Positions 2,893 to 26,322 of a DNA stretch of 64,000 nucleotides are shown here, piece by piece. The notes under the pieces were generated by a model. That model was not told where the DNA came from, ran no database searches, and was given only the letters and a program-made list of their open reading frames with translations. Position numbers and translations under genes: made by a program. Position 1 is the stretch's first letter. Every line of letters starts with the position of its first letter. Where the stretch lies: contig NMRA01000353.1 of the NCBI GenBank assembly GCA_002633005.1, forward strand, positions 71,625 to 135,624, given 5' to 3'. Source of the DNA: Phoronis australis (taxonomy: Eukaryota; Animalia; Phoronida).

Positions 2893-3293
2893 CAAATAAG
2901 ACGTCACTTGCAGTCGGTCAAGATTGATGAGCTGTTTATGAAACAGCCTGATGGAAGCTACATGGCTCTGTCAGATGACAGGTAGTACTGTATTTATACC
3001 CATTCATTGTACTCACCCTTCGCTCTCTGTGTGTGCATAAGTGACTCTTACTGTATAGACCTGTCTTTACACCCGTTCATTGTAGTGACTATTCTCTGTC
3101 TGTGGGTGCGTAAGTGACTTATTACTGTGTAGACCGATCTTGATATCTAATTCATTTTACTGACCCTTCTCTGTGTATTTGACCCAGGTATCCATTTCAG
3201 CGCTTGGAGCATTGACTCGTATCGAAAAAAGGTCATCTATCTTTCAGATCTGTCGCCCATTATTCCATTCAACCCAACTCTATTCTGGAGACT
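2893..3293 (+). CDS. C-terminal half of a ubiquitin-like domain (exons 2893-2981 and start of 3248-3451)
   Basis: Spliced LSDDRSVAHYSIQPNSILE aligns with ubiquitin LEDGRTLSDYNIQKESTLH. Confidence 0.5.
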
Positions 3294-6200
3294 GTGTCTA
3301 ACCCGCTGTGGGTAGCAGCCATGCAGATCTTGCATTTTGAAGCAACCATGAAGCTCAATCAAGAGTTTGAGGACCGCAAAAAGCGCAACATGTGGGAACA
3401 GTCTCAGATTAGGAAAAGGACCATCATGTCTGTCTTGTACAACTCTAAAAAGTATGATGTGATTTTCTTAACTTCTGTATAGAAGAGTGTGAATTATTAA
3501 CCTTGGATATATCTAGTAGCTACACTGAACTTTGTTACCAGATGAGTCATCAGTGTCAGTTAATATGCTTTTGGAAAGTCTTTAATCAAAAATGTTGCAT
3601 GCGTTCTTTCCTTTTTACCTTTTATGAAATGATTTTCAGTTGTGTACTGAAGTCTTTGATATTGTCTGTGTATTTGCCACATGAATATATGTTTTGCGAG
3701 ATAAGTAGAGCAGTGGCTTTTTGTCCCACTTCCTGTGACGTCATGGAGGTAACTTGCTACTACATAGCAGAAATTCGCCTGAATTTTGTGAGGCCCCTTG
3801 TTGGTTTTCAAGACTATGGATGCCTGATGAGGCTCTGCAATGAGATGGTGACTCTGCCTCATTTCCAATGTTCTGAAAGTTGCAAGTGGTCTACTGACTG
3901 TCGTTTTCATTTCTATTTTTCTAGGAATGGTAAGCCAACTCAGATCATCATTTGTATTAGATTAGAACTACTTTTCCAACACCTATAATTACAAATGGGG
4001 ATTTTTTTGCCATTCAGGGAAAGCGACCGACAACCTCCTTTTTTTCTGAGAGAGGATGATCTCAATGCATTTTTGCAGCAGCTTGCTAGAAAAGGTGCTG
4101 AAATGTCTCCGATTACTCTACTATGTTTGAAGAATTATCGCATCCAGTTTGAAGAAGTGGATGTAAAGCAGGAGGAAGACCCCATAGGTTCCTTCGTAAG
4201 TCGTTACAGAAGAATACTGGCCGAGGAATACGGGGGTAACCAAACAATGGGTAAGATTGACCTCAGCTGCAAATATCACCATTGCAGATTGCAACAATAT
4301 TTTGGCCAAGAATTTGTGTCCCAAATGTATTGTCTATGTTAGAATGGAAGAAACGATTCGAAGTGGGAAAAATTATCTAATCTATAAGAATTGAATTTAG
4401 TCATATTCGATTCATATTCTGTTCCAGAAAAAATCAGTTTGTTCAACAAAAATTGCTATTGTGCTTTTAGAAATGAACTAAGTTCTGGGACTAAAACATA
4501 AATTAAGGAAGGTACCCACTTTGAAGGGAAACGAACAAACAAATTTAGAATTATTTTAAGTGAATATTTTTTTATTTTTCATTGAAAATTAAAAAGATGT
4601 GCTGGTTTCTTAAGGTTATGACCCTGACACTGACCTAGACCCATCTGCTGGCATCAATAACAGAAAGAGAAGAAAGACAGCTCCACCTGGTGGTGGTGTG
4701 TCCAGAAACAAGAGAGCCAATCCTACCATTGGTGTTGATTTGTTGAACAAAGGTGGCGCCGCTGCTGGAGCCAGAAGCCGACCAAAAAAGGTGTTTAAGA
4801 CTGTTGTTGCTTTTGGAAGTTAACTCATCTAAATGTCTTCAATGTGTGTTGTGAATTATGTCTCAATTTGTACAGTTCTCCCACAAGTAAAATAACTTAC
4901 TTGGTTGGTTTTAACTTTTCAGGGTCTATTCGAAGTTGTAAATTTGCACATTTTATCACATATCACATTTTGTGTCTTGAAAATAAACATCGAAATTGAC
5001 ATCCTTGTGTAATGAACGCATTAGCCGGATTCTGAGATGTCCATGAAAACCACTCCTATGTGTTTTCTAGTTTATGTTACTTACAAATAATGTTTTTGTT
5101 AACAATCTGTTCTTTACCAGTGTGTCTTCTGCTGATATATCTGCATGTGATGAGTATTTGATCCATGGTGCATAGTATCTTGTTCCTCTGTTTTTTGGTA
5201 GGAAAGATATTGTGATGACTGTGGGGAAGACTACCAGACTGTTGCTGCATTCTATTGCCCTGACTGTGAAGGAGGTCTGGCATTATGTGCTATCTGTTGC
5301 GATACCATTCACAGAGGTGCTGCCAGAAGAAATCACCAGGTGGCAGGTAAGTGATGATTGTCAATAGTAATAGTGGTCCTACTGATCATTTTTATGGTCG
5401 TGTCCATCATTGATGACAACTAAACAGTGCAAGTATATGACAATAGTCACTTCCCTGGATACCGCAGTGCCCTCTGATTCTGCTGGGTTTACCCACAATG
5501 CTGCACGTCCATAGTGCACTTAGCCTGCAGTTGTACTGTGGTGCTGTGCTAATCACTATTTTTGCATTAAAAACTACTCTACTGTTTTAATAAGTACAGT
5601 TTATTGTTGCATATTGAGTTGCAATGCAGACATGATTAATTTTAAAAAGATGTATGAGGCTTGAGAATTCAGTTTTTCACTTGTCTGCCTAGGCTCACAA
5701 ATGTAATTTTTGCCCTTTTTTTGAAAATTAGGTCAATCAAAAAATGCACTTTCCTACCTCCATAAAAGAGGAGAATTGAATACGCGATGTGGGAATCATC
5801 TATTTACCAACTAGGTTCCTAAATATAAATATAAATTGTTGCTAAAGTTCTGCTCCTTATTTTTTTGCTGTTTACAGTATCGTCTGGTTACGACTACCTA
5901 TAAAATCAATCGTGATTTAGAAATTCCAACGATTGCAATCTTGTGGTGTTCGTTTATTGAAGAATGTTAGTCAGCGTAAACAGCTTTTGCATATGTTGCA
6001 AGTTGATGTGTGTCATGACACTGAAGGCCGGGTTGACATGGCACGAGTTGATGTGTGTCATGACACTGAAGGCTGGGTTGACATGGCACGAGTTGATGTG
6101 TGTCATGACACTGAAGGCCGGGTTGACATGGCACGAGTTGATGTGTGTCATGACACTGAAGGCCGGGTTGACATGGCACGAGTTGATGTGTGTCATGACA

Positions 6201-9200
6201 CTGAAGGCCGGGTTGACATGGCACAAGTTGATGTGTGTCATGACACTCTCGGAACACGCAGCTATTGACACTAAGTTATTTTGCTCATGCACAAGATAAC
6301 AGTTACGCGAAGGTAAATATGAATTAATATTTACTAAATGCTTTTGGATTTCATTTTTCAGTTCTATCCAACTTGGCAAAGATTTTTTAATGTAACAGAT
6401 CTCCATGCTTGAATATTTTCGGGCTGTCACAATCTTTAGCTACCACAATCGAACCCATCGTAAATGTCCGGGGGTGTCTGTCTTGTGTGTCAAGCATGCA
6501 AGTCCATTAGGAAATGTTTATGCAGTGTGCACATGTGTTGATAGTGTTTACTTATAAAATGTGTGCAAATACTGAAGTTAGGGGACATCGTGTACTCAAT
6601 ATGCATGGTAAAGTCAGGAGGACATTGCGTACTCAATATGCATGGTGAAGTCAGGGGGACATCATGTACTCAATATGCATGGTGAAGTCCATTTCCCTAC
6701 TCTGGAATGTAATGAAATTTCTTGGAAAATGTCAATGTCATCCATACTAACTCACTGGAAAAATTTTGCACACAGTTAAGATGGCCAACAACAGCATACT
6801 TAACAAAGGGAGGTTGCAGCGTTAGCGTCAATCAGGCACAAGTTAGGTTACTGTTTGTGCTTAAAGAAGAAGAAGAGTGCCACTTTTCACTAATTGTTAG
6901 AGAAAAATATGTGGATAATTATTGATGGTCGTATTGTTAGAGTGTCTGTGAACCTGGAGAGGATACCATACCTTTTGTTGTGTGTAATCCCGTTCATAGA
7001 TGAAATTGTTGTTCTTTGATTCTCTCCCATTTCTGCTTTATTTGTAGACATTTCAACTGCACCAAAGCAGACTAAACAATATGCTCCAGAGGTGGGTGCT
7101 GTGAATTAGTTTGCTTTAAAATATTGCTTGTATGTCAGGTTAAATGTCTTTCAGCTTTTTTCAACCCTGTTATACTGGTCATTGACTGGTCACTGACTGG
7201 TCATTCCTTTAACAAACAGCTGAAAAACGTTTTTGTGATTATTGTTGGATGGAATATACTTTTTGATGTTATTAGTTTTGACCAGACCTATTAAGGAGAA
7301 TGCCATCCAAAAAACAAAATATTTTGTATCAGTTTAGATCGAGTAGTTCCGCTCGATAACAGCAAGTACAGTTCTTTTACCTGACACCTGACGGCAGAAG
7401 GTGTTGAAATTAAGCGATGACGTCAGAAGTACGAACACGATCTGCTCAGCAGTTCACAACACGCTTACTGGTGTGAGCTTATCGCTTGAATTCATCGTTT
7501 TACACCAATAAATCTTCAAAATTTGATGTAAATCTCTTACAAATACATCGAGTTATTGAACAAACGTGTTGTTTTGTTTTGCTGTTATGGATTTATAAGT
7601 ATTTAAACGTACCGTAGCCTACAAAGTTTGATTGGCCAATTTACCAAGGTCGGTCGCGAGAGTTTGGGGTCTGATAAATTCGAATCATTCTTTCGTGAAA
7701 TACAGACAGGAGAACATAGCTGTGGGTTTTAATTTTAGACTTGGAATTTTTTCAGTTCTTAACACAAAACGCTTGTTATCCTGGCCAGTGGCTCGGAACC
7801 CAATCAGGCCCATCGTTGCCGGACTGAAGACATCACGAACATTAAACCAGCCAAAGTTGGAAACTAAACTTCCAGTCACGAAAAGACTGTACTAGTGAGC
7901 CAAAGAAATAATATGCACGTGATTATTTTGATGAATTAGCTGCGAAACTGCAAATCTACGTACTTTTCGGGAGCCGCGAAGTCAGGTTCCCCTTCCACAG
8001 AACTGTCAAAGCAAAAGTTGTACAGTAACAATGATTTGAATAATGTATATGTTTTTCTATATAGAGATTTCCCTAACACACGGCCTCGGTGCACAGCCAA
8101 TTAGCTTTATTGCATCTGAACCCGGTAACGCAGTGATTTATTCATTGCTGGCTTCTCAAAACATTTGCACTCACGAACACTCCAAAGGCATTACAAATTG
8201 TATCTAATGAGACACGCTTCGTTTCAGTTTTATAAAACCTTTGGTTAGGGTGAGAATAATTCATTTTGAAACAGAACACACAATAATAAACGTCATCATG
8301 GCAACTCACTGTAACCCAATCATAATCTAGTTGCTTTGAATGCTAATTTCTTTGTATTCCTCCTTCAGCCCTACAAAGCACCCTTTGCCTTACTGGTCGC
8401 CCTGTACAGCGGATACAATGAAACACCCAAGAAACTTAGCATGGCTGAAGATGAAGTGAAAGAAAGAGCTCAGAAGTTAACTGACACTGATCTTAATGAT
8501 CGACAATATGGTAATAGGCAATGGGTGCTATGGTAACAGAGGTGTGGACAGTATGGTAATAGGCAACAGGTGCTATGGTAACAGAGGTGTGGACAATATG
8601 GTTATAGGCTGGGGGTGCTATGGTAACGGGGGTGTGGGCAATATGGTAATAGGCAACGGGTGCTATGGTAACAGAGGTGTGAATAATATGGCAATAGGCA
8701 NAATATGGTAATAGGCAACGGGTGCTATTTTAACGGGGGTGTGGGCAATATGGTAATAGGCAATGGGTGCTATGGTAACAGAGGTGTGAATAATATGCTA
8801 ATAGGCAGCGGGTGCAGTATGGTTACTTGGGTGAGGGTTAGATGGGAGGTGGAGGGAATGGCATTGGTTTATGAAGTAGGATTTGTGTAGAAAATATAGA
8901 AAAGGACAGACTTGGGATTCCATGTTACATTCTGCCAAAAGTTTACTTAGCCTGATTATTGATAAAGCATGAATATTGTATGACATGAAATTATGTAACA
9001 GGTTATTTGGTGATAGGCCACGATGAAAAACCAGCAACTTTACTTTAAGTGAAATTGTGTACTGTATAACACATGCAACGAAATGCAGAATTTAGTTTAG
9101 AGACAGATTACTGAATCAACTTAACGGGGTCATTATAAATGATATGAATGTTGTGAAGGAAATGGTCTTCTTCAGTATTATGTTTGGAGGGACAGAAAGT

Positions 9201-12200
9201 GGAGTTTCCTATAAAGCCTTGTTCCCACTATTAGTATGTTCGCACGAGTGTCTAAATTGCAAATCAAAATGTGACACCAATTTTTGCCCTTAGTTTTTTT
9301 ACTCGCCATCGGAATTTCTCTTAAGTGACAATTGATGTCAAAACAAATTCACTGTGCAATAAATTGATTACTGTGACTATAACCAAAGCCCTCTTACTGC
9401 TGTGCATGTGTGTCCTGTGAAGTAAGTGGTCTGGCTATAAAAGTTCTTGCGAAAACACCAGGGGTGAGTGGTACAGCTGGCAAAGTGACCCTTGTTACCG
9501 TTCACATGACGGGCGCTTTTGCTTTCTAGTGAAAACGCTAGAATTTTAGGCAGATTGTGAATGGAGTATGTAAATTCATTTATCTAATGGAACAATTATT
9601 ATGTTACTCCACATAATTTTTTTTGCTTGGCAGTTTGTATGCTACACACCACATTTGTTGATTGACCAACGTGGAATTTACACACAGCATGTGTCTTGTC
9701 AATTGGTTTGTTTTGGTTGAAAGACTCAAGGTGGCACTGTGATTGCCTTTTTAATGTAGCCTTTTCCATAGGCATTGCTCTGGTGTCTTGTGATAGACAA
9801 TTCTGAAACTTGGTAGACCTCTGTGAATAAATATTGTCACGGACTGCAAACAGTCTGTCACACGCTTTTCTCTACAACTTAATGTTTGTGAGTTCTTTGA
9901 GATGTAGTGATGTCTGCTCTTTTATCAACAAGTTTTTTACTGGAGGTTTATTGGTTCACCAAGCTATTTGTTACTTAATCTTAAATCGTTCTTTTTATTG
10001 TCTATCATTGTTTTCATACAATTTACAATTGTTGTTCTTTTGAATGTTTTCAGTTTGAATACAGTTTTATTGTTTTAATTTCAGGAAAGTTTGTAAGTGG
10101 CTTTGACTGTATGGATCGTTCACTGATATCAAAAGGCTTAGTACAAAAAGAAGACGCTGCCAATCCAACGTATGGGTGATCACGTATTTTAATAAAACTT
10201 TCTATCACTCGTCCTTTAACTTATGCAGTGAGGAAGTTATTGTTTGTTTCTTAGAATTTAACATTACTGTTAGTTTCATATTCATTACACCATATCTTAA
10301 ATGTCAATTGTCGTATAGTGTTTTGATTTTACTTTATTTCTGTTTCTGTTGACAAAGGACGTTATTACATCCGAAAATTTCAGTTGATCCATTCTTTTTG
10401 TTTTATTTACCTATTTATATTAGTTTCATAAATACAGTTAGTAAGTATTTTTTTGACATTTTGGGTTTTGCTGTTGACTGTTGAGATGTTTTGTAATTTA
10501 ATTTTCAGTATTTGAAACTTATGGAGATAGTTTTATGAGAAAAGCGTCTGTATTTGAAATTAAGTGATGTGAAGTTTCACTTTTTTCTCAGATAACTGTG
10601 TTCCAGACTACAGAGACTTTCCTTGACTAAAATTGCTATGAGTCACTAATCAAATATTTCTCATTAATAATTACTGAATTATTGAAACATTTCAACTAAA
10701 TATGTTCACTTCACTTGTACCTTCACCCGAATTTCTTTCGACGCAGGTATGCTTTGACAGAGTCTGGAGCGGCCCTTGCCAAACGCCTGTCCATCTACCA
10801 TGATGCTTTCTCTAGATTCAAGTTGTCCACTAATCTGCCTGTGTTACCTGATCTGGCGCAGGGACATCCTCAGGGGTAAGACTGCAGCACATCTCTACAG
10901 TGCTTTACTTTCCTTTTATCAAACCTCATTCTCAGTTTATGGTAAATTAATACAATTTACTATAAATATTGTGCCAGAACCTGGTACTAGAATGGTTTGG
11001 AACATTTTTGCAATATTAGAAGTCTTCAATGTTATGAAGATTTATTGAATTAACACATAGTAACAACCAGATTTGTTGCCATGACGAAACCCAATACAAT
11101 CTCAATATCAAATGCAAAAAATATAAATAACTGGATTAACAGTCCAAGTTAAGAAATAATTTAAAGAACTCTCCATGTGAGATCTATTACCGTAATTTTG
11201 TTCATTTGGTGGAAGTCAGTCACTGTTATAGGCTGACAATCTGAAACCTTTTCCTACTTAAGGTTTCTCACATTTTATTAGAGTGCTGAGTTCTTGTGAT
11301 GACAGCTTATACTGTTTAATTTTATTATTCTTGCTTTAGTACCCGTTGCAAAAACAGAAATGTGGTCTTGATCATTGATGAGCGAGAGAGAGACAAAGAT
11401 CGTCTGGTCGCTCAGTGTAGGCAAGCAGGTATTGCAACACAGATCCGTGAGTTACCATCAGGAGACTACATATGGCTGCTGCCACCTGTCTGGGCTGACA
11501 AGAACTACTCACAGACCATGGCAGATTTAGAAGTGGTAAGGTGGCATCCTGGATTAATTAGCATTTTTAAAACACCTTGCAGTGCTAAATAGGTCAAGCC
11601 AAAATCCCCAACTTCGAAAGTGAATAAATCAAATTAATGGTGTTCAATTTTACCGTTGAAGTAACCATGAGTACACTTGGTCTATGGTGTAAACATGTGT
11701 AATTAACTCACAGTTATTACAATATCAAAACAAAAGACTCTACTTTAAAATATGAATCAAGCATGTGGGTTTAAAATGTTATGTCTTTCATTAAATTAAG
11801 AATACATCAAAGCAGAGCCCTTGGTCTAAGCTTTGTATTCAAAATTATTTTTTACTTTCTCCATTCTACTTTGTTGCAAACTCAATAAAAATTTCTGTTA
11901 TTGGGATTGGGAAACGAGAGGTGAGTACACCATTAGCTAGAGGACCCATTACTCTGATTGGTTGGAACAAGAACCAATGACATCAATTTTGTACTTCGAT
12001 ATGGCACTTGTGTCAAAGTTGATATGTACTCACATTGGGCAATGTTTCACAAACACCAACAGTGGTTGTGATTTATCTTCAAACAGTTGTCATTTGTAAT
12101 CTGAATATATTTGGAATCCTCTTCCCTCATATGTGTTGCTTGCAGGTGCTTCCTTATATAGTTGAGCGCAAAACATGGGATGACTTGGCCAACAGTTTGA

Positions 12201-15200
12201 GGGGAAGACGGTTTGAAAACCAGCTGGAGCGAATGAAAGTACGTAAGACACCAGTGCTTATGAGTTGATAATTTAATTCCAGTACAGGGGCAGATTGAGA
12301 GAGATTACAGTATTTAGATTTTTTCTGGAGTTTGAGCATGCTTGATCCATCAGGAGTTGACGGTGGAATGGCTTTAATGATGTTGAATGACCTGAAGATT
12401 TGAGAAGACTAAATTTTGCATGTCTCTAGTCACTTCCCCACAGTATTGTCTTCTTTTGTCTTACTAACAGACCATTACAAACTTTATTTAATTTACTAAG
12501 TTGTTCATTAGCAAATTATGCCTAATTAATGCAGATTGTCAAGCTGGTGTTATTGCTGCCACCATGTTTACTGTTGCAGAAATGTGCCAAATAAGCTCCA
12601 TTTGGGGAATCAATGAAAAAATCTTTAGTGATTGCAGAATCTTAACAAAGGTGTTGTTATTTCACCTTTTCAATATCGAAAACATAACTGATTAAGAAAG
12701 TTGGATATGAGAGATTATCCTTGTAGGGTCTATTTCATGCTTGGTCATTGTCTTTTGCTGTTCTTTGTCTGTAGTCATGACTACGATATTTCGGTAACCT
12801 TCAATTCACATTTTGGATCATATGTTTATTTTTATGCGCCCACATATTTATTGATATGGTGGTGCATATTGCCGTCATCTCTGCCTGGGCGCCTGCATCT
12901 CCTAAACCCCCTGCAGGATCGTATTGAAATCTAGCAGGTGTGCTCCTATGGGGTTTACGAGTTTCGGACTGACCCGAATACCGCTGTGCCCCCTAGTGGC
13001 AATTTTAATTTTTTACGTTTGCCTCTGTATCTTCAAAGGGCCTCAACCGATTTTCATGAAATTTGGCACATAGGCATGTGTTAATGAGATGACGCTTTCC
13101 TCTTGTTTGTGGATGGATTTGAGGTATTTTGCGCCATCAAGCGGCCATTTTTATTATTTTCGAGTCTGTTTTTTGGCATCTGCCCCTCTATCAACCAAAC
13201 CACTCTTACTCTTATGATAATTGTGAAAATTGGGTTGTATGTTCTTACTATGAAGAGGACGGTTGGCGATGATTTTCCGATGACTTCGAACACTGTGGCA
13301 TCTCCTAGTGGCAGTTTTGTTTTTTTGCGCCTTAGCTGTATCTCCTAAACGTACTACAGTATCTTTATTAAATGTAGCAAATGTATTTATATGAAGTTGT
13401 TAATAGAGGACGACGACGACTTCAGACAGATCAGACCATGGGTGTGCCCCCTAGTGGCAATTTTAATTTTTTTGCATTTACCGTACGTATATTCAAAGGT
13501 CATCAACAGATTTCCATAAAATTTGGCACATCGGCAACTATTAACAAGTTGACGCTATCCTTCCATTTTCGGATGTATTCGAGGTATTTTGCGCCACCTA
13601 GTGGCCATTTTTATGTGCCCACATATTTATATGTGGGTGCATATTGCCGTCATCTCTGGGCGTCCGGGCGTCGGTGGCTGTATCTCCTAAACCCCTTGCA
13701 GGATCTTATTGAAGTTTGGCAGGTGTGTTCCTACGGTGCTGACAACAGAGGACGAGTTTCGGACCGACCCGAATACTGTTGTGCCCCCTATAATTTACCT
13801 CTGTATCTTCAAAGGTCCCGGATTTTCATAAAATTTGGACTAAAGGCATCTATTGGTGAGATGACGCTATCCTCCCGTTTTCGGATGAAATCAAGGTATT
13901 TTGCATCACCTTGAGTCCACCCTCTATCAACTAATCCATTCTAAGGATGATTTTGAAAATTGGCGAATATTTTCTCATTGTGAAGAGGAGGGTTGACGAT
14001 GACTTCGACTTTTGTGGCGCCTCCTAGTGGTAGTTTGTTTTGGTTTGCACCCATAGGTGTATCTCTTAAACCCACTGCAGAATCTTTGTTAAATTTAGTA
14101 AGTGTATTTTTATGAAGCGAACAACAGACGAGGACTTTTAGATGGATCCAAGGAACGCTGTGCCCCCTATTGGTATTTTCATTTTTTTCTGTTTACTTTG
14201 TTTCTCAGAAGTTTCTTGACAGATTTTTATAAAATTTGGTAAATAGTTTTCTATTAGAGAAGTGATGGCACTTCCTCTTTTCGGATGTATTGGACATTTT
14301 TGCGCCATCTAGTGGCCATTTTTACGATGCAAATAATCAAACCCTAGACGCACCTCCTTCGCGGTGCATTGACATGGGCGCATTTCAACGCTTTGCATTG
14401 CTCTTGTTCATTATCAGTAACAAATCTTTGCACACACTATTTAACCATCAAATCTGCTAGCTGTTATGGACATCTTCCATTGATTTTAATAACCTGGCAA
14501 ATCTTTACTAACCATTTTCAGGCTCTTTGATTTTTTATGTTTATCAAGTAGTTTTGAACTTTGATTTGTATTTAGAGTATGGGTAGATTCACATGAAACT
14601 TTGCACTATTCTTTTCTAGCTTATGAATAAGAAAATGACTTCTCAAATTTTTGACTTTTGGTGGAACAATGGAGATATTGGTTGTCAAAATGAATACTTG
14701 AGAATGAACATTTTTTTAAAAAAGGACTTTAGATTGTTGATATCTTTGTTGTTTGTTTGAGACACGGTTCCATATGCATTGATAATTAGAATATTATGCT
14801 CTAACATTAAGTTTAGTTTTTAAAAACAGTCATGTCCAGTGTAGGAAATGATGATTTTCACAAATATTGGTAGTCACATGATTGTAAATGTCATTGATTG
14901 CACAAGGGTTTTAGGCATGAATAATGTTTCTGTTATCAAGAATTCAGAAAATGTATACTTTTGATTTATGAGACAGCCTGAAAATGGACGGTTAAATTTA
15001 TTTGATGAAATGTGAAAGGACTTTACGAAGGTTGACAATTTTCACTGTCTATTAAAATTCCTTTTTATGCGCCCACATATTTATATGTGGACGCATTATG
15101 CCGTCATCTCTGTCCGTCCGTCCGTCCGGGCGGCGTCCGTCCGGCGTCCGCTGCTCTATCTCCAAAACCCTTTGACATAGGTTCATGAAATTTGGCACAT

Positions 15201-18200
15201 ATGTTCCATTCATGAATGGGACGGCATGTGCGAACTTTCGGACGGATCCGACTACCGGTGTGCCCCCTAGTGGCAATTTTAGTTTTTTACGCTTACCTTT
15301 GTATCTTCAAAAGTCCTGAATGGATTTTCATGAAATTTGGTATGTAGGCACCTAGTAGTGAGATGACGCTATCCTGCCGTTTTCGGATGGATTCGACATA
15401 GTTTGCGCCACCTAGTGGCCATTTTTAGTGTTTTCGAGTCTGTTTTTGTGCTTCCACCCCTCTATCAACCAAACCGCTCAAAGGATGATTGTGAAAATTG
15501 GCATGTATGTGCTTACTATGTAGAGGACGGTTGACGATGATTTTCCGACGATTTCGACTACTGTGGCGCCTCCTAGTGGCAGTTTTGTTTTTTTGCGCCT
15601 ATGGCTGTATCTCCTAAACCGTTCGCAGGATCTTTACAAATTGTGTAAGTATATTTATATGATGTTAACAACGGAAGATGACGACTTTTGGTCGGATCCG
15701 ACTACCGGTGTGCCCCCTAGTGGCAATTTTAGTTTTTTACGCTTACCTTTGTATCTTCAAAAGTATTGAACGGATTTTCATGAAATTTGGTATGTAGGCA
15801 CCTATTAGTGAGATGACGCTATCCTACTGTTTTCAGATGGATTCGACGTAGTTTGCGCCACCTAGTGGCCATTTTTACTGTTTTCGAGTCTGTATTTTTG
15901 CGTCCACCCCTCTATCAACCAAACCGCTCAAAGGATGATTGTGAAAATTGGCGTGTATGTGCTTACTATAAGGAAGACAGCTGACAATGATTTTCAGACG
16001 ATTTGGACTACTGTGGCGCCTCCTAGTGGCAGTTTTGTTTTTTTGCGCCCATGGCTGTATCTCCCAAACCGTTTGCAGGATCTTTACTAAATTTAGCAAG
16101 TGTATTTATGTGATGTTGACAACGGACGATGACGACTTTAGGATGATTCTGATTACCGGTATGCCTCTAGTGGCAATTTTAGTATTTGCCTCTAGTGGCA
16201 ATTTTAGTATTTTACATTGACCTCTGTATTTTCATAGGTCTTCAGGTGTATACTTTGTGTTACTTCGTGACTGTGAAGGAAAAGTTCCAAGTAGAAATTT
16301 GTTTCTGGCATTCTAATGCTGTGCTAATCTCGTATGTTGGTAAATTTGTTTTTAATTCTATGTTTCTGTGGTGCTTTAAGCAACTGGTGTATAGGATGTG
16401 CTTGTATTATGAAGATTACTCACATTTTGCCCCTAGCCTATTGAGGAGACAATGACCATGCCTTTCCATTTTGCAAAGTATGCCCTCTACTGGCCACTTT
16501 ATGGTACCAATAAACAACCCTAGAAGGATACCGTATGCGGTGCAATTGTGGGCGCATTTCAACGCTCCGCGTTGCTCTTGTATTTTATTGTTTTGGTTTC
16601 TATGCATATAAATCACTTGTCGACTGTTCTTTCACAGAGATGTGAGTGCATGCTGTTTTATGTGGTTGAAGGAGACATTGATGGGATGAGAACCAAACCA
16701 GCTGATCCTTATAAACGATTCCTTGAAGTAAGTTCATCATATCAAATCTCATTATCTGCTCCTTGTAAACAGTTCTTTGCCTCAGTATGCCATGTGTGTT
16801 CCTACTTACTTTCTGTGCACTTTGGTTGCCATTGGCCCTTTTGTCTAAATATACTCGAGTGTCCTGCTTTATGCACTCTGATTCAGGAACAGTGTAAAGT
16901 AAACAATATTGAGGAATTGTGAACTTAAGGTAGTCATGTGTGAGATACTTTCTCTGATTCTGAACATCAAATATTAACTACGAGACAGTGACATTTCTAA
17001 ATGTTTTTCGTGTTCATTAACCAATAATGTTGCAGAACAAAGTGTCAGAGTTGCAACTTAAGGAGAATGTGTTTGTTAACCACACGTCAAGCTGGAAGAA
17101 GACAGCACAGTTTCTGATCTGGATGTCGTATCTTATCGCTGAGAAACACTGGGCAGGTAAGAAAGAAGCTTTGAAGAGGAGCCTCGCTGCATTTATGATT
17201 TCCGCAGCTGCTTTTGCAATGATTGAAATCAAGTACTATTTTTGTGATGTGAAGCTCTAGGGGTTTAACCATGACTTTGTTGTTTTCAGTAGGGTGGTTC
17301 AGCCATCTGATGCTGTATATTTATGGATATAGTGACCCAAAAGCCATAGACTCTAAGTTAGCTAGCAATTCTTCAACAACACTATTCAATTATTGACTTT
17401 CACCGGGGTCAATTTTTTATCAGTATCACATTTTTGGAGTCTGATCAAGTGTGAAAGTCAATAAATTATAATTTTTTTTCATTCTGTAAGTACATTTGCC
17501 AACTAACTCATCGAAGAAGGCTGGGCTTTTGGTTGTACGTTTATTACTCATTCGGTCAGTCAGGTACTGGTTTTTTAACCAAAACATTATGGAGAGATTT
17601 TGAAAAAACTTTCAGGAGATACAAATGGACAAAAGAATAATCAGTTTTAGTTTGGGAAAGATATATTTTTTTGGAGTCATACAAAGGTCCATCTTAATAC
17701 AAAACAATCAACAAACGTCATTTAGTGAAGTCCTTGCAATCATGAGTGTGATGGAGAGAACTGGGATGCCTTGATGCGGGTTTACTTTCCTCTGGTGGTT
17801 TACATTTTGCGATTATTTTAAAACAAATGTGACTTGGAAATCTAGATTAATTAAAAGACTTTTGATTTTGGTGACTTACTGGTAGAGTACTGGTAAAGTC
17901 AAAGTTTGCACCATGAGAGAGACTGGGTTCAAATCTTGATGAAGTAATTGCATATCAGGAAAGCATTTTGAAATTAAATAATTATTGGAAATGGCATTTC
18001 CATAGTAGCGGAAATATTGTGACTTATTGACAAATACTGGTTAAAATTAACTCCACAATCTGTCCAAATCATAGGATAAAACAGTGTTTATGTAGATGAC
18101 AAATAATATCGTGTGCATGTAGTATTCATAGTGACTTTTAACAAAATGTGTGTCACTGTACAGGGCAGAGTGTTGGCACTATGACTTATACTGAGTACAC

Positions 18201-21200
18201 TGCTAAAGCTAACAGCACAGAGGTTGTACCCGTGGTGAACTTGAAAAAGAATGTGAATATTTGGACAGCTGATCTATTTATTGATCTCCTAATCAGGTGA
18301 GCTATTCTGTTTGGCTTACTTTATTGTTTCGTGAAAACAACACCTTAAGGTGGCACTAGATGTGGTCTAATGGTGTGTACATTATTCGGACCAGCTGTTT
18401 ACTGACATGTTTCTCATAGTCAAGTTTCTTAGAGTTACAACATATCAATTCATCAATTGCTACTAAGATTTTGTGACATTATAAGGTTCATTCACAAACT
18501 TGAGTGAAACTTTTGCAATTCTTCTGCTGAATTGACTTTTTGCATTTGCACGACTGCTAAAAACAGGCAAAAGGATGAAGATGTGCGTTCATAGTTTACC
18601 TTATTTTACTTGTCACACATTATCCATAAAAGTGTTTTGATTTCTAAAGTGTGATTGAGTGTTTTTTGGTTAAACTTTTAATCCATTGTGCATGAGAGTA
18701 AATGATGAGAGACAATCAGTCGTACACAACAACCACAGGGCAGTCTCAGCTGGGGATCATCTCAGTCTCCCAGGACATATCACTGTGCTGGTCATCGCAG
18801 GTGAACGTTTAGATTTATTTGTGGAAACGCGCGAGGCATAGCAATGTTCAAAATGTTGGGGATTTGTTATAATTTGTTTTGACGTCATATTGTATATACC
18901 ATTATTCCTATGAGTGTAGTTAATATAGCTTAACAGTCTATTTTTCTGTCATACTCGTTTGCTACCTGTTCTCTATTATGAAGAGTTTAGCATCATTTGT
19001 CACTGATATATTTATATTTAATTTAAACTGTTTTAGAGATTCATGTGGCGAGAGCAGCTTTTGCTGCCACCTCAACAACGTGTTATCAACCCATGCCAGA
19101 CCCACACTGCTAGTTATACAAGACCTGTTACAGTATAACAAGGTATGTTATCAACCCATGCCAGACCCACACTGTTAGTTATACAAGACCTGTTACAGTA
19201 TAACAAGGTATGTTTTGCATCTCATCTAAAATCCTTCATACTAGACTGGCTTTTAAACTGTTCAGAAATAATAATGTAAACACCCGATTCATTGCTTTTT
19301 GTTAATTAATTGCTCTTGTTTTTGTTACTCTGTCAATACCAAAAAGTTAATATGCCATGATAATTTGTGGGAGAGGCTGGAATAGGACCAGTGATCAATC
19401 AATTAGATTTTAGATATTATCATTAGCTATCAGAATAACGGGCTAACATAATTGCATTACATGAAAAACAATGTGAACTGTGCTGATATGCTTGTCATAC
19501 ATATGGCAATGCATTTTAAAAATCAAAAGACATTAGTTTGTAGATATGTGCCATCTGATGTAGTTACATTAGGCACAACTTAACTATGATAGCTGAGAAA
19601 GGGGTGTACGCTCTTGGGGCTTTTTAGTCGGTTGTTTGTTACATTTCACACATCTTCCTACACATCTTCCTACACATCTTCCTACACATCTTCTCACAAT
19701 ATTCATGTGCTCGACTGGAACCTGAAAGTTGGTCTGGCTTCAGTAGATGATTACTGATTTTTAGATGAGAAGCAAACTACTCAAAAGGTGCGGGGATGTT
19801 TTCATTACAGCTAACAGGAACGCAACAGGTATTTATGTTTGAATTAAAAATTTTTAATTAGTGATTGTCAGTTGTGGAGTTATCAAGTGCCACCATTTGA
19901 AAGACTTTTCCATCTTCTCTGTGTTGCCTTATCTCCTTTTGTGAGACATGGTAACTTTTATGTTACTTTTTATAAATCTTCAAGATATCGTAAACAATAA
20001 ATTATAATTGTAAATGTTGTTTTTCTCTTTGCAAATCTACATCGTCTCTATTGGTTACTTCTGGGTTTGCTTTTGTTGTAGAGTGTATAACAAATTGTAT
20101 AGAGAACACAAAGAGTCAACTCATTCATTATGACATCACAACGTATTGGCAACTCTATATCCAGGTATATTTTGTGTTTACCTACATACAGTTGTATAGC
20201 TGGTGATGCTCCTCTATGGGTGTTTGGACATGATGGCATACAGTTGTGTCACGCCTAATACTGATGAGTGACCTAGTGGAACTAGTAACTGTTTAAGCTG
20301 CTGACTTGTGTTGTGCAATGAGTGTAAGTGGTGTGGGCCATAGAGTATGACATTTGTGTGACTATGAGTTGCCTTATAACTGTTGTGCAACAATGGGTCA
20401 TTGGAGAGCACATGATAGCTCTATGGTCATCCTACATTATATACCTGATTGTTCAAATGTTTCACTATTGTGCAATTGTCCTTTGTTAATTTCATGGCTT
20501 CAGATTATCTCACGGCAGTCGTACGTTTTGCTCTCCATCAATCTTGACTTCTTATAAAAAAACACGTCCAGTGAGTGTAATGCTCTGAAAGTCTCAGAAG
20601 TCCAAGAAAGCCTCACCCACTACACTCTGTAGGAGAATGACTATACGTAATAACACTGTTTTTGACATGTTAGTTAGTGAGTTACATTAAAAATGATATT
20701 TTATTACCATGAAAACTGATCCATATATATGTTGTACCCATGGCCCTTTGGCTACAGAAAGTGTTTGTCCAGCATCTCTCATGTCTTTAGGTCATACATC
20801 ATGTCAGTGTTATAAGGACAGAAGATGATGAAACAACCAAGTCAGTTCAGAAACTCTACATGGGCGAGGGGACACGCAGTCAAGACACAGTAGTGGAGGT
20901 AGTTATGTAGTCTGTTTGACTAGTTACGTACTTCTGCATTACAGAGATGGCAGATTGAAATTTTATGCCAATGTTGTGAATTTTTTTCTAAGGAGTAAGA
21001 CCAGTACAGGGCTCTCTCTCACTTGAGAGTAAAGGTACCTGAGGGGAATTTTTTGTTTGGTTGAGCGGAGTACTTCTCGGTCACCACCAATTCCACCTCC
21101 CCGGTTGCCACCTCCATCTATATTTCAATATTGGTTCTCAAAATCGAGGTCTCAAGGATCGTGTAGTAGCAAGCAATGTGACAGAGATGAATGGAGGTTC

Positions 21201-24200
21201 GGGTTTGAAAGTAATGCAGTTTTCCAATGGTACCATTTGATTTCTAAATTGTGCTAAAAACTGCTAACCTCAATACTGTTCAATATTTTTGGCCAAGAAA
21301 ATTGTTGGAGTAAGCAAAAAGTGCTGTATGATACAAGCTCTTCAAACTTTTTTAAAATAAATAAATAGGACTTCAATATAAAGCAGCTGTAGTAACTAGA
21401 AACATTGGTATTCCAGGTTGTTGTTGACCATGACACTAGAGACTGTAGTTTTGTGAAAGAGGACTATGCAAGTGATTCACAAACATTCAGAGTGATGATG
21501 GAACAGGCAAGTCATTTGATGTGTAATGCCTTTTATCATGGTAACCGTAGTAAGAGAAGTATTAAATAGTCCTCTATTATCTACTTAATGTGTGTTGTGA
21601 ATTTGCGTATCTGAGAACTTTTGATGATTAGAAGAAAGTTGTGACACAGTTGTCAGCACTTATCATTGCCCTGGTTTACCTCTAGGCTTTAGAAGAGAGT
21701 AAAAACACGTCTGCTCCATGTCAACATGTAAGACGTGAAGATGAGTACTTTGCTGTGGGTGTCAAGGAAAGTGAGGTTGTCAACAGGTCACAGTCTTCTT
21801 CTATTGATGTAACTACGCTCACAGACTCTCAACAGCTTGAGTTAGCTCTTGAACAAAGCAAATCCATTTATGTGGAAGAGACAACACAAAGGGGAGAGTC
21901 TTCATCCAGATTCAATGGTGATTTATCTACACTGACAGACTCTCAAAAACTGGAGATGGCTCTAGAACAAAGTGAGTCAATTGACGTGGTCACGATTCAA
22001 ACAAAAGACACTCTGTCTGAGGGTTTTGATGGCATAACTTCTGGATTGACAGAATCTCAGGAATTTGAGTTGGCTCTGCAAGAAAGCCGATCTTTCTGTG
22101 TAAATGAGACATCAACTCCTAAAGACCCTCAATCTAAGTGCCATATAACCACTTCACACAACGTGGGCAATAGTGTAAGTAATGACTGTGTTGGTATAGC
22201 TAATGAAGATGATGATTTGAAACTGGCATTGGCTCTAAGCATGTCAGAGGTCAAAGGGGAACACTTCACACAATCCGACTGGAGCTTGCCAGAGGTGAAA
22301 CACAATCACTTTTTACGAACAGATGGTAATTGGTCAGATCGATTCTCACAGAATGCAGATAGCGTAGCAGTGGTTAAGCCATGTCACTTAACACAAACTG
22401 AAAATTCTCCAATAAATACACCAAAGTTTGGAAATTGCGAGAGGATTACAAAAGCTGTTGAGGAGGATTTGAGATGTGTTCGCAGAGAAGCTCAGGCCAA
22501 GTGGAGGGGAACAGCCAAATGTGTAGCGACTGGTAAACACAAACATTCAGTGTCAGATGATGAACTCCTTGCTCGTACACTTCAACACCAGTTTGATACA
22601 GGTATGTTATTATTTACAGTCAATGTGGTGGTAATGCTGCAAATGGTATTTGGATGCTGTAATTTCCAATTGGTCGTAGACAAAAATTTAAAACACAATG
22701 CCTTATTTAATTCCTAAAGTGGTGATTTTTGTCATATTTTGTCTGTACTCATGTTATTTTCTGCATTGTTTTCATCTTACTTTTTATCAATGTTCACAGC
22801 TCATAGTAGTAGTTAGGGCTGTGGAATCACAACATGTAACATATGGAGGTTATTTCATAATTAATGAATTATGTCATTGTTTTATAGGCTATGTCAATGT
22901 GCACAACAGTGGAGCATTTCAAGATGAGATCCTTGCTAGCAAACTACAAGATGGGTTCCTCAATGCTGATCAGTTGAAACAGAAGTCATACAACCTAAGC
23001 ACAGGTATGGTGCTACCAAATTGACACAGAAGTCATACAACCTAAGCACAGGTATGGTGCTACCAAATTTTGGTCTGTCTACCTAAACATCATCCTTCTT
23101 TGCTCTCGAGCAAACTCCGCTCTGCATTGCTCTTGTACATTTTTGTTGAAATAACATGGCACATGAACTCATTTTCAGTGTTTGGAGTGAAGGAAGGTTA
23201 CCACAATAACCGTTAGGTAAACAATTCCTTATTTCTTTTAGGTTTCTCTTCACCCAATAAACGAAAAGCTGACAAGATACCCTCAAGTGATAACACGGCA
23301 GACCTAATAAATACCCATAAACAAAGGTGCTTGGAAGTACCCCCCGGCCCTGACTACTCACCTACAGCTGAAGGCAAGGGCAGTAACAGGACTTTAGGAA
23401 AGGATTGGGGAATCCTGGGTAAAGTGTAATCATTGTCTTAGAACAGTATTGTTATAAGGTCTGTTGCCCAAGTTCTGTAGTTGTCAAAAAATGACAAAAT
23501 CATTGTGCCTTTGTCGTATTATCAGTTTTGTTTCAGACTACTACCAAAATGTTTAGTTCAAAGGTATACAACTTTTTTATGTCATCAGAAATGGACTCCA
23601 TTGACAAATAGTTGAATAATAATAGCTCATAACTGAAAGAATTCAAGGTACTTGTTTAATATTCGTGGCAGTTTACAAAACAATGGAACTTTTAGCACAC
23701 AAGCTGTTGGTCATCTCGTGAACAAAATTGAGAAACTTTCAGTTTGAGAATGTTATTCTCAACAATTGCATCAAGCAGCAATACTTGGATAGTAGCTACT
23801 GCAATTTGTTTTTATCCAGTGTTTTACTTTTATAGAGCAAATTTAAGTTTGAAGTTATCGACGTCAAGCCATGGTGATTTTGTTAGTCTGCTTAATATAC
23901 TATTACATTTGTCTTCAAAGATTTTGTACTCTTAACTAGATTTCTCAAGTTATCCAACAGAATCTTCCATGATTCTCTTCAACATATTAAAGCTTTCAAC
24001 AATTTCAGTAATTCCTTTCAAAGTTTTCTCTGATAACAAAATGTATCAGCTGATGTTTCTGCTAATGAAATTACAATTGTGTCACTTAAAAATGAATGAC
24101 CTTGTGCTGATTTAGGTTATAATGAACTAATTTCCTGCTAAACTTGGTCAAAATAATCGCAGCTTACTTGTTCATAAAATGTAAGTGAAAAACTGTGACC

Positions 24201-26322
24201 AAGTAGAATTTGCTGCCTCTTGAAGGGTATCTGGTGAGTTACAGAACCATTCCGCTTGTATGATTTCATAACATTAACAAAAAGTTTTCAATGTTTTTAC
24301 AGAGGCAAGACTCCCTGCTTGTTACTATTGAGACAGAAATAACTTGGCTTCAAGTTGTAATGTGACCTTTTCAGGTACACTTGATGATGACAGTGATGAT
24401 GACTTGCCTGATCTTCCAACTGCTGAACAGTTCATTGGTGACTCTGCAGTTGATAACTGTAAAGGTGAGTTCAGCTGTTGATCATATCATGTTCTGTCAC
24501 GAATTTAAAAATAAAAAGTACCGAAACCAAATAGGCACCTCCGCCATGTCTGTCAACTTGATGGCAAAGGAGACCTAAGATTTGTTTCCGATTTGGGTAC
24601 TAGGTGCTATGTGGACACACAATTTTTAAGAACCGGTACAAATCTGCTTTTTGGCATTTCAGACAATTTTTCCTCATCAACTTGAAACAAATGACTTATG
24701 GCGTGTCTTAGCAATAGCAATGCTTTTTGATGCCTTGTAGTTTCTTTAGAAACAAAGCTCAACCTGCTTACTGTTTTCAGGTGAGACTGGTCTGGCTAGC
24801 AACATGAAATGTGGTGCATGTCAGGGACGTGGTCACTCACGGGTCTGGAAACAGTGTCCACAGTACTGGTCATCAGCTGAAGTGGAGCGCAGGGAGGTAA
24901 ATGAATTTTATCAACTGACAAACAATTTCATATTCTCCTGCCAGGGCACGACTGCTGTTTTCCATTTCTCTTCTATTATATTGGAGTATATTTGGTGTGT
25001 GTATATGCTCAGATTTGTGCAGTTTTAAAGAATGAAAAAGTCCAGGGCCCTGAATCTAATCTTTATACTTAAAACAAACTTGAAATTATGTTTGGCATAA
25101 TTTCTCTGCTCCTTTTGTGTGACCTCAAACTAAGTAGTTATCAGACTGTGCTTGAATATATTAGTTTATGCGTATGAGTTTCTAGTACAGGTTTGTACTT
25201 GAAGACCCATATATTCGTGCTACAAGCTCGAGTAAAAACTCAAAATTTCGAGTTCAAACTTCAAAATTTTAGCCTTAATGTTGGATTTATCAACTGCAAA
25301 TTAGGACTAATAAATTACCCACGTAAGTCATTATGTACTCGAGCATAGAATAATAGACATTTGTCTTGAGTTCGCACTAAAGTAGAGTAGAAAATGCCAA
25401 ACATAATTTTAAGTTCCATTTTGAGTAAAAACATTAGAGACCGGGCCCAGAGCAACACACTAAAACCTATACCAGTTGTATCATGTAAAAATCACCAAGA
25501 CCAAACAAGATTAGGTCAAGTTCATTGCTGTTAATCCAGCTGCTCCAGCTATCAAGTGAATTGACTGTTCATAACCTTAACATGTTCATAACCTCAACCT
25601 GTTCATAATCTCAACATGTTCATAACCTCAACATGTTCATAACCTCCTCAACATGTTCATAACCTTAACATGCAGAGTTAAGAAAGGGAGAATAGTCACT
25701 TACAGGAGTCCCCACATTTAGAGAACCAGTTTTCTGAATAATTGATTATCTGGCATCAAACTGGTTCTTAAAATCTGGCACCCTGTGACTATTGGCAAGA
25801 AAAGTATTTTGTAATTATTTCGATACCAAAACAGAGGTTTGAGGCATCCGGTCTGTGCGTATTACTTGTTGTAGAATAATATTCATTTATTTCACTTATT
25901 TTTGTTGCTTTTAGACTCAAAATCTGAAGAGAAAACAAGCAGCAGAGAAGAAAGTTCAAGAAAAAGAAGCAGCATTAAATGAACTTGTAAGTTAATGTTT
26001 ATTTGTAACAAAAGTGTTCATGAGCAACATGTTTCGCCGTCACTTTTTTGTCCATCAATGTTTTCAGTATTACACAGTGGATTTTGTTCAACTAAAAACC
26101 TCTACTTGATTTTCACATTCCTCTTTCGATCAATAACGTTCATTTATTTTACAGCGTAACAAAGAACAGCAGCTGGAACTGGTCAGTCGCAACGTCCAGC
26201 AGCAGATTGCTGATGTTAAGCGCGGACTGCATGGTTTGATGAACATTGTGGGGGGATGGCCTAAGGAGCCGAAGGGTGGACGAGGGAGGGGTCGGGGAAG
26301 AGGCCAGCGTGGCAGACAATAA
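2893..26322 (+). CDS. MUS81-like ERCC4 endonuclease with Ubl, B-box, winged helix, second EME1-like ERCC4 module, UIM/MIU array, zinc knuckle and RG tail (~1328 aa, 5' partial)
   Basis: Phase-compatible exons: 2893-2981, 3248-3451, 4018-4250, 4615-4790, 5202-5346, 7048-7091, 8369-8510, 10085-10169, 10747-10875, 11340-11535, 12146-12238, 16638-16727, 17036-17156, 18164-18296, 19037-19142, 19765-19828, 20082-20164, 20791-20898, 21417-21506 (GC donor), 21686-22601, 22888-23004, 23242-23418 (donor uncertain; 23373 or 23382 also fit phase), 24375-24464, 24781-24896, 25915-25986, 26155-26322 (TAA). Total 3987 nt, no internal stop. Confidence 0.85.
5202..5346 (+). CDS. B-box zinc finger exon
   Basis: CDDCGEDYQTVAAFYCPDCEGGLALCAICCDTIHRGAARRNH; canonical AG/GT borders. 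Confidence 0.85.
6001..6247. repeat. 45-bp minisatellite x~5.5 containing the palindrome GTGTCATGACAC
   Basis: Near-identical units; explains four overlapping repetitive ORFs. Confidence 0.95.
6583..6689. repeat. 37-bp tandem repeat x3
   Basis: GGACATCGTGTACTCAATATGCATGGT units at 6583, 6620, 6657. Confidence 0.85.
7048..10875 (+). CDS. MUS81-type winged-helix domain (4 exons)
   Basis: KQYAPEPYKAPFALLVALY...EVKERAQKLTD...GFDCMDRSLISKGLVQKEDAANPTYALTESGAALAKRL matches the MUS81 WH pattern (YxPxxxSGxxALLxAL...LIxKxLV...PxRYxLTxxGxxLAxxL). Confidence 0.8.
8502..8826. repeat. 45-bp minisatellite starting at an exon 3' end
   Basis: CAATATGGTAATAGGCAACGGGTGCTATGGTAACAGAGGTGTGGA x~7. Confidence 0.9.
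11340..17156 (+). CDS. ERCC4 nuclease domain with intact catalytic motifs (4 exons)
   Basis: VVLIIDERE...RELPSGDYIW...VLPYIVERKTWDDLANSLRGRRFENQLERMKRC..LFYVVEGD...LQLKENVFVNHTSSWKKTAQFL; GDxnERKxxxD signature of the XPF/MUS81 family. Confidence 0.9.
12829..14407 (+). mobile_element. Non-autonomous Helentron (HINE/DINE-1-like), composite copy
   Basis: 5' TTTTTATGCGCCCACAT with adjacent inverted repeat, a second nested 5' end near 13608, ~150-bp internal repeats, 3' GGGCGCATTT + hairpin + CTTGT. Confidence 0.7.
15062..16581 (+). mobile_element. Non-autonomous Helentron (HINE/DINE-1-like), best-preserved copy
   Basis: Subterminal inverted repeats ATGCGCCCAC/GTGGGCGCAT, (CCGT)n microsatellite, 450-bp tandem unit (15244 vs 15694) built of three ~150-bp subunits, 3' stem-loop CAACGCTCCGCGTTG, T-rich flanks. 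Confidence 0.78.
18164..20898 (+). CDS. Second, degenerate EME1-like ERCC4 module (5 exons)
   Basis: VNIWTADLFIDLL...SFCCHLNNVLSTHARPTLLVIQDLLQYNKMRSK...WQLYIQVIHHVSVIRTEDDETT follows the order of the ERCC4 fold C-terminal half with no ERK motif. Confidence 0.55.
19081..19214. repeat. 65-bp tandem duplication spanning a splice donor
   Basis: Two near-identical copies ending AACAAGGTATGT. Confidence 0.9.
19648..19693. repeat. 12-bp tandem repeat (CACATCTTCCTA) x~4
   Basis: Direct reading. Confidence 0.85.
21417..23004 (+). CDS. Ubiquitin-binding motif array (5 UIM-like, 2 MIU-like)
   Basis: MMEQALEESK, DSQQLELALEQSK, DSQKLEMALEQSE, ESQEFELALQESR, EDDDLKLALALSM; DDELLARTLQ and QDEILASKLQ. 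Confidence 0.75.
22979..23069. repeat. 47-bp tandem duplication spanning a splice donor
   Basis: ACAGAAGTCATACAACCTAAGCACAGGTATGGTGCTACCAAATT twice. Confidence 0.9.
24781..26322 (+). CDS. CCHC zinc knuckle, coiled coil and RG-rich C-terminus (3 exons)
   Basis: CGACQGRGHSRVWKQCP; ERRETQNLKRKQAAEKKVQEKEAALNELRNKEQQLE; GGRGRGRGRGQRGRQ*. Confidence 0.8.
25046..25447. mobile_element. MITE, PIF/Harbinger-like
   Basis: GGCCC...GGGCC termini, ~50-bp imperfect TIRs (AATTATGTTTGGCAT / ATGCCAAACATAATT), CAG 3-bp TSD on both sides. Confidence 0.7.
25567..25672. repeat. ~17-bp minisatellite (TGTTCATAACCTCAACA) x~6
   Basis: Direct reading. Confidence 0.85.

Follow-up and report, generated by a model that had tools for sequence, protein, structure and literature searches.

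The window analysed here, a stretch of 64,000 nucleotides of contig NMRA01000353.1 from the phoronid Phoronis australis (GenBank assembly GCA_002633005.1, positions 71,625 to 135,624 of the forward strand), harbors on its + strand a gene related to MUS81. Its product very probably combines in a single chain an ERCC4 nuclease domain with intact catalytic residues (domain 1) and a second, non-catalytic module of the ERCC4 fold (module 2), the latter being recognized from predicted structures. The complete order in the reading frame is ubiquitin-like domain, B-box, winged helix, ERCC4 domain, module 2, ubiquitin-interacting motifs (UIMs) and zinc knuckle; all coordinates are compiled in Table 1. 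Exons chosen by their AG/GT ends gave a 25-exon model that is open over 1,298 amino acids (aa) from 2893 to the stop codon at 26324, and the addition of one exon with a GC donor, at 21417-21506, led to the final model of 26 coding exons and 1,328 aa with the same stop. The first coding exon was not found in the window, in which the first ~40 aa of the homologous proteins have no match; in the homologues this exon encodes the start of the ubiquitin-like domain. Independently of the splicing, a profile made from the homologues only was compared with 3,911 six-frame segments of the window. It recovered all four domain-1 exons, one of them weakly (E 0.2), and four of the five module-2 exons in the correct order (E 7.6e-10 to 0.04), missing the 21-aa exon of module 2, and the spliced module 2 was matched at E 4e-39. 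Within module 2, the donor half of exon 19037-19142 is tandemly duplicated at 19078-19207 (61 of 65 bases alike). The copy creates a second donor site, and read-through to it meets a stop codon.

The exons of this gene are transcribed. Four RNA runs picked by their species label (X1 to X3 raw reads, X4 contigs) were aligned to positions 10000-26700. The coding exons were covered in X1 and X2, two of the three raw-read runs, on the strand expected for RNA of the + strand, while X3 had almost no reads over the gene and the X4 contigs gave little coverage. As X3 belongs to the same study as X1 and X2, in which transcripts were clearly present, expression may be tissue- or stage-specific. The exon-normalised depth in X1 was 6-12 for domain 1, 4-14 for module 2 and 19-21 for the long tail exon; the domain-1 and module-2 exons were alike in depth in two of the three raw-read runs, and two intron-only bins had zero depth in all runs. 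The otherwise intronic bin 21140-21696 reached depths of 3.38 and 1.78, for which 0.2-0.4 would be expected without and 1.8-3.9 with a 90-nt exon, and the GC-donor exon was therefore included. The exonic differences between reads and window (16, eight silent and eight changing) were too few and pre-selected, and were not used.

The gene belongs to a conserved family. When one 65-aa exon was searched with HMMER against 1.84 billion representatives, 32 matches were returned, from which 20 short fragments, two repeat-driven matches and one protein of other architecture (P0025) were left out. The remaining nine long homologues, from Mytilus, Pecten, Pinctada, Saccostrea, two Haliotis, Owenia, Lingula and Branchiostoma, are colinear with the model over aa ~2-748 at 31-40% identity, and five further homologues were obtained from Argopecten, Saccostrea, Mercenaria, Ostrea and Mya. 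These 14 proteins form the alignment (after exclusion of two isoforms and one cluster mate) and stem from independently annotated genomes of four phyla, i.e. molluscs, one annelid, one brachiopod and amphioxus. Module 2 is complete in 13 of the 14, domain 1 in 12, and both are complete in one chain in 11. The identity to our model is 32-48% in domain 1 and 26-37% in module 2, and drops to 0-12% directly behind the latter. Family members are 1,300-2,500 aa long, and Pfam detected ERCC4 in all of 16 proteins, UIM and zinc knuckle in 12 each, the B-box in six and ubiquitin in four. Members occur in lophotrochozoans as well as in amphioxus, which suggests that the family originated in bilaterians, as judged from limited searches in which losses are not mappable. 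These proteins go under the names 'MUS81', 'uncharacterized' or 'serine-rich adhesin-like' in the databases, hence the architecture is hidden in the current annotation. A word-based protein search with one exon gave none among 31 candidates, and a weak search of the same type for short stand-alone module-2 proteins gave none among 22. The excluded P0025 is a 1,506-aa protein with ERCC4, oligonucleotide-binding (OB) fold and helix-turn-helix (HTH) parts, which is akin to the family in domain 1 only.

Judged by its residues and its modelled fold, domain 1 is a nuclease domain of the MUS81 type, and its catalytic residues are intact. It displays the active-site motif GDXnERKX3D, as worded in a passage of PMC7048804, and its catalytic positions D429, E432 and D458 are kept in all 15 rows of the alignment, E488, R489, K490, D494 and Q507 in 14. 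The family profile matched MUS81 among solved structures at E 1e-16, and in the AlphaFold model of the Haliotis rubra homologue (pLDDT, the predicted local accuracy score, 75.6) domain 1 aligned with MUS81 at Z 19.2, linker helix included. The winged helix of the homologue was also closest to that of MUS81 (2mc3, Z 10.0, root-mean-square deviation (rmsd) 2.9, 92 aa), in a tie with other winged helices at 9.9; in Pfam it was called WHD_MUS81 in none and HTH_45 in six of the 16 proteins. The conserved all-helical region near the N-terminus lies where MUS81 has its single helix-hairpin-helix (HhH) domain and is a candidate counterpart of it; it matched an HhH family of Pfam in 0 of 16 proteins. 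An earlier note on this DNA, made from the letters alone, had described an intact active ERCC4 domain followed by five further in-phase exons. The intact domain is borne out by the conservation of its catalytic residues and the match to MUS81, the five exons were joined by splicing into the open frame reported above, and the ten motifs quoted in the note all lie on the + strand where it had placed them.

The fold of module 2 was predicted on the same Haliotis rubra homologue. Folded alone (pLDDT 80.5), it shows the order strand-helix-helix-strand-(two inserted helices)-helix-strand-helix, which is also how the C-terminal part of domain 1 is arranged. When this model was compared with 48,161 chains, ranks 1-11 were all occupied by XPF/ERCC4 domains, and the best unrelated chain reached Z 5.5. 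Hef (Z 8.6, rmsd 2.5, 93 aa) and EME1 (Z 7.8, rmsd 3.7, 108 aa) are tied within one Z unit, EME1 giving the longest alignment of the ERCC4 family; they are followed by MUS81 (Z 7.4), ApeXPF (7.3), ERCC1 (7.1) and FANCM (7.0), and at ranks 7-11 by FAAP24 twice, EME2, ERCC1 again and Zip2-Spo16 (Z 5.8-5.6). A search in Atlas, which used its own model, returned ERCC4/EME2 clusters as the three nearest neighbors (template modelling score 0.59-0.66 over 119-123 aa), and the highest probabilities in Foldseek were those of Hef (0.91) and ApeXPF (0.82). We assign the fold because one family fills the top ranks in one register, not because of the height of the Z values.

In all ten chains compared, the match begins 34-62 residues into the ERCC4 domain, therefore module 2 is predicted to lack the first three strands and the first helix. 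Its span is similar in length only to those of EME1 and EME2 (differences of -4 and 17 residues), whereas the other eight chains differ by 34-52, which points to an insertion of the EME1 type. The inserted part includes a basic helix with invariant Y660, N661 and K662, R664 in 13 of 15 rows and a net charge of +1 to +5, which is helical in both models. From the span lengths, this helix may take the place of the basic 36R linker of EME1 (368-403), to which part of PMC3834828 ascribes an important role in DNA binding and activity. The best-conserved part of module 2 is its terminal helix-strand-helix, in which Q707, L708, Q711, R720 and E722 are found in 14 of 15 rows. An ERK-like motif is absent from module 2 in all 15 rows, and a single GDF occurs in one row, in the tail behind the module.

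Module 2 sits directly after the linker helix, i.e. where MUS81 has its C-terminal tandem HhH domain, (HhH)2. Such a domain was not found in the family: no HhH or EME1-MUS81_C family was detected at E<=0.5 in 16 proteins, the tail being judged by sequence only, and a motif scan for HhH found none in the 14 homologues and none in the gene model. Owing to the lack of (HhH)2, the family is not regarded as canonical MUS81.

Table 1. Features of the MUS81-related gene (positions in the window)
Feature	Position	Strand	Basis
MUS81-related gene	2893..26324	+	open frame, AG/GT ends and one GC donor; homologues colinear
Ubiquitin-like domain, C-terminal half	2893..3296	+	homologue model residues 15-95 versus ubiquitin folds, Z 10-10.7; Pfam ubiquitin in 4/16; window exons align
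Conserved all-helical region	3297..4234	+	alignment; five helices in homologue model; place of the MUS81 N-terminal HhH
B-box zinc finger, putative	5205..5345	+	Pfam ANCHR-like_BBOX E 1.5e-5, below curated cut-off; 6/16 homologues
Winged-helix domain, MUS81 type, 3 exons	8369..10813	+	homologue model versus MUS81 winged helix 2mc3
ERCC4 nuclease domain (domain 1), 4 exons	11359..17155	+	Pfam ERCC4 on 3/4 exons
Exons of domain 1	11340-11535, 12146-12238, 16638-16727, 17036-17156	+	AG/GT ends, single frame kept
MUS81-type linker strand and helix	17156..18222	+	homologue model 440-626 continuous with MUS81 316-529 of 2ziu_A
Module 2, predicted N-terminally truncated non-catalytic ERCC4 fold, 5 exons	18250..20856	+	aa ~612-733; 120-122 aligned positions in 13/14 homologues, 26-36% identity
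Exons of module 2	18164-18296, 19037-19142, 19765-19828, 20082-20164, 20791-20898	+	AG/GT ends, single frame kept
Basic helix inserted in module 2	19128..19794	+	conservation, charge, helix in both models, span comparison
Terminal helix-strand-helix of module 2	20129..20856	+	predicted secondary structure; conserved residues
90-nt in-frame exon with GC donor	21417..21506	+	accounts for RNA depth in bin 21140-21696
Poorly conserved tail, 4-5 UIM-like repeats and 2 short acidic-helix motifs	21498..22949	+	Pfam UIM E 2.3e-4, at cut-off; UIM in 12/16
Zinc knuckle, TAF1 type	24810..24870	+	Pfam zf-CCHC_6 E 1.4e-4, above cut-off; 12/16; family profile matches TAF1
Charged helical stretch and RG-rich C-terminus, stop codon	25915..26324	+	translation; RNA depth over last exon

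Repeats occur in and around the gene. One dispersed family fills the 4.4-kb intron that interrupts the nuclease domain (12800-16580) and much of the neighboring region at about 36400-48200; reads matching the intronic repeat pile up to a depth above 1,000, most of them on one strand. The - strand upstream of the first exon identified holds an open frame of 155 aa at 3-467 without Pfam match, which presumably resembles the start of a Ty3/gypsy gag. Downstream lie the exons of a convergent gene (28400-32430, - strand) with a weak Pfam Pkinase match at 31684-31803 (E 0.0045), and a retroelement-type RNase H domain at 50991-51599 on the + strand (Pfam E 6.4e-17). Arrays of short tandem repeats were found at 836-935, 5995-6245, 8510-8820, 34050-34650, 35850-36200, 48730-49060 and 55410-55565, and 520 positions of the window are N, including a gap at about 48211-48729.

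How could such a chain work? Passages of PMC7048804 describe that XPF-ERCC1, MUS81-EME1 and FANCM-FAAP24 pair their ERCC4 domains via the helix-strand-helix. In the Phoronis protein, module 2 would pack on domain 1 in cis and cover its pairing surface, the helix-strand-helix of module 2 meeting its counterpart on domain 1 in the manner of MUS81-EME1; the link between the linker helix of domain 1 and module 2 measures ~12 residues in the model. Such a single chain would cut branched DNA without a separate EME1. Module 2 may have been derived from an EME1-like gene that was fused to, or inserted in, a copy of MUS81. Both (HhH)2 domains of MUS81-EME1 are reported in portions of PMC3834828 and PMC7516265 to be essential for junction binding, therefore the single chain needs DNA-binding substitutes. 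The winged helix, the inserted basic helix and the zinc knuckle might replace the two lost (HhH)2 domains in this respect; DNA binding is described for the MUS81 winged helix in part of PMC3834828 and for the related TAF1 zinc knuckle in part of PMC5854669. From what is generally known of these domains, the UIMs could bring the enzyme to ubiquitylated repair sites such as stalled forks or crosslinks and, placed in one protein beside a ubiquitin-like domain, might perhaps permit self-inhibition.

Several of our results weigh against this interpretation. Z values of 7-8.6 are in the middling range of the tool, the Atlas matches stay under the bar for naming a family (feature score 0.79), and Foldseek returned nothing at E<=0.001 with EXO1 as first match (E 0.11). 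Moreover, the folds were computed on a homologue that is only 30% identical to the protein of the window in module 2, and module 2 corresponds to the C-terminal two thirds of the ERCC4 fold, with 34-62 residues missing. In pairwise sequence comparison of module 2 with domain 1, 793 of 1,000 shuffles scored as high, as did 59 of 100 in the profile-profile comparison, and full-length profile searches of solved structures found MUS81 only and no EME1 at E<=10. Of the 14 homologue models, three have one incomplete module: that of Mya arenaria (P0040) is without the ERK motif and other stretches of domain 1, that of Branchiostoma (P0024) without ~30 aa of domain 1 and that of Pinctada (P0017) without the second half of module 2, due to annotation errors or real decay. 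No exon junction was among the 15 of 399 joints listed, which all came from intronic repeats. Finally, as (HhH)2 is described as essential in MUS81-EME1, activity without it is not a given. Besides these points, Pfam matched none of the five module-2 exons, phmmer with one exon found nothing among solved structures, and Atlas queried with both modules returned MUS81 clusters over 135-200 of 335 residues, none spanning both (among clusters of at least 50 members). A predicted template modelling score of 0.67 was considered as a sign that module 2 is placed on domain 1 and was rejected, because 0.57-0.72 can be reached without contact. The earlier note had proposed a second module devoid of catalytic residues that repeats the order of domain 1 and may make the protein a MUS81-EME1-like nuclease in one chain. 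The lack of catalytic residues was confirmed; the repeated order holds for the predicted fold, as ranks 1-11 indicate, and fails in the sequence comparisons; and of the MUS81-EME1 likeness, the active and the dead ERCC4 module in one chain are retained, whereas module 2 is truncated and neither (HhH)2 was found.

Alternatively, module 2 might be an unrelated small alpha/beta domain, for example a PIN/FEN1-like one with a helical arch, that is ERCC4-like by common arrangement only. In favor of this are its lack of sequence similarity to both domain 1 and EME1, its Z values below 9 and the many EXO1 and FEN1 structures among the Foldseek matches. The alternative is very improbable, since 11 ERCC4-family chains outrank all other folds in the same register, no PIN chain is among the best 50 of the 48,161 chains, and a second model and library, as well as the Foldseek probabilities peaking at Hef and ApeXPF, agree. 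Even less credit is given to the idea that the two modules come from different transcripts or genes and that only the gene models put them together. It could draw on the lack of an exon junction among the joints listed, on eight poly(A)-like hexamers in the introns between 17156 and 21686, and on the Pinctada model ending inside module 2. However, the first strand of module 2 shares exon 18164-18296 with the MUS81 linker helix, 13 of the 14 homologue models run through module 2, and the read depth in X1 is 10-13 before as well as after the 17156/18164 intron.

If the second ERCC4 fold is accepted, it may still not pair in cis: the protein could form a swapped homodimer, or module 2 could replace (HhH)2 in binding DNA or protein, with domain 1 still pairing with free EME1. 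The position of module 2 exactly at the (HhH)2 place of MUS81, its invariant basic helix and the pairing between chains of all members described in parts of PMC3834828 and PMC7048804 speak for this rather unlikely alternative. Yet the pairing helix-strand-helix has been kept and is the most conserved part although the N-terminal third was lost, and without (HhH)2 the chain would miss one of the two surfaces for a normal partner, as outlined in a section of PMC7048804. It is also conceivable, with a distinctly small probability, that a self-paired ERCC4 unit resembles FANCM-FAAP24 or Zip2-Spo16 in binding or scaffolding junctions rather than cutting them, or that it needs a cofactor presenting the DNA in order to cut. 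(HhH)2 was found in 0 of 16 proteins, the many ubiquitin-related parts suggest a recruiting role, and the Mya model is without the ERK motif; nevertheless, 14-15 of 15 rows retain the acidic and ERK residues of the active site, across four phyla, and the Mya model may be faulty, because other domain-1 stretches are missing as well. We consider pairing of module 2 with domain 1 in cis likely, and on balance somewhat favor the mechanism as a whole, in which a relative of MUS81 would cut branched DNA as a self-paired chain without EME1.

A wider proposal is tentative and in our view has somewhat less than an even chance: an undescribed, ancient bilaterian class of XPF/MUS81 enzymes may have arisen by fusion of MUS81 and EME1 genes and discarded both (HhH)2 domains; it would act as one self-paired chain, hold junctions by the winged helix, the basic EME1-linker-like helix and the zinc knuckle, and be switched by the ubiquitin-like domain and the UIMs of the chain itself. 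A literature search by titles and abstracts found no description of the architecture, and subscription papers were largely outside its coverage, so that an earlier mention is possible; the architecture is thus apparently undescribed so far. PMC8117345 and PMC9534323 proved to deal with other matters. According to the papers cited here, eukaryotic XPF/MUS81 nucleases are two-chain pairs that need both (HhH)2 domains on the junction. A conserved animal family with an active and a dead fold in one chain and without (HhH)2 would break both rules and would reveal which part of EME1 is truly needed. Moreover, molluscs, annelids, brachiopods and amphioxus would gain another structure-selective nuclease, and biochemistry a natural single-chain construct.

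Compared to known systems, the Phoronis family is closest to MUS81, its best match in sequence and fold, with which it shares winged helix, ERCC4 domain with GDXnERKX3D and linker helix in equal order. It differs from MUS81 by the putative second ERCC4-fold module in the place of the C-terminal (HhH)2, by the added ubiquitin-like domain, B-box, UIMs and zinc knuckle, and by its length of 1,300-2,500 aa. With EME1 and EME2, module 2 has in common the predicted non-catalytic ERCC4 fold with a long insertion and a span of equal length; in contrast to them, it is part of the same chain, lacks ~58 N-terminal residues of the domain as well as (HhH)2, and is undetectable by sequence. Archaeal XPF/Hef, in which two identical active chains pair as homodimer, resembles the family in the pairing of two ERCC4 folds that is proposed here, and Hef gave the best Z for module 2 (8.6). 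However, each archaeal chain is active and has (HhH)2, whereas here one active domain and one truncated module share a single chain. FANCM-FAAP24 and Zip2-Spo16, both in the top 11 of module 2, also contain ERCC4 folds without catalytic residues. They consist of two chains with HhH and have no shown nuclease activity, whereas domain 1 of the Phoronis family possesses the full active-site motif.

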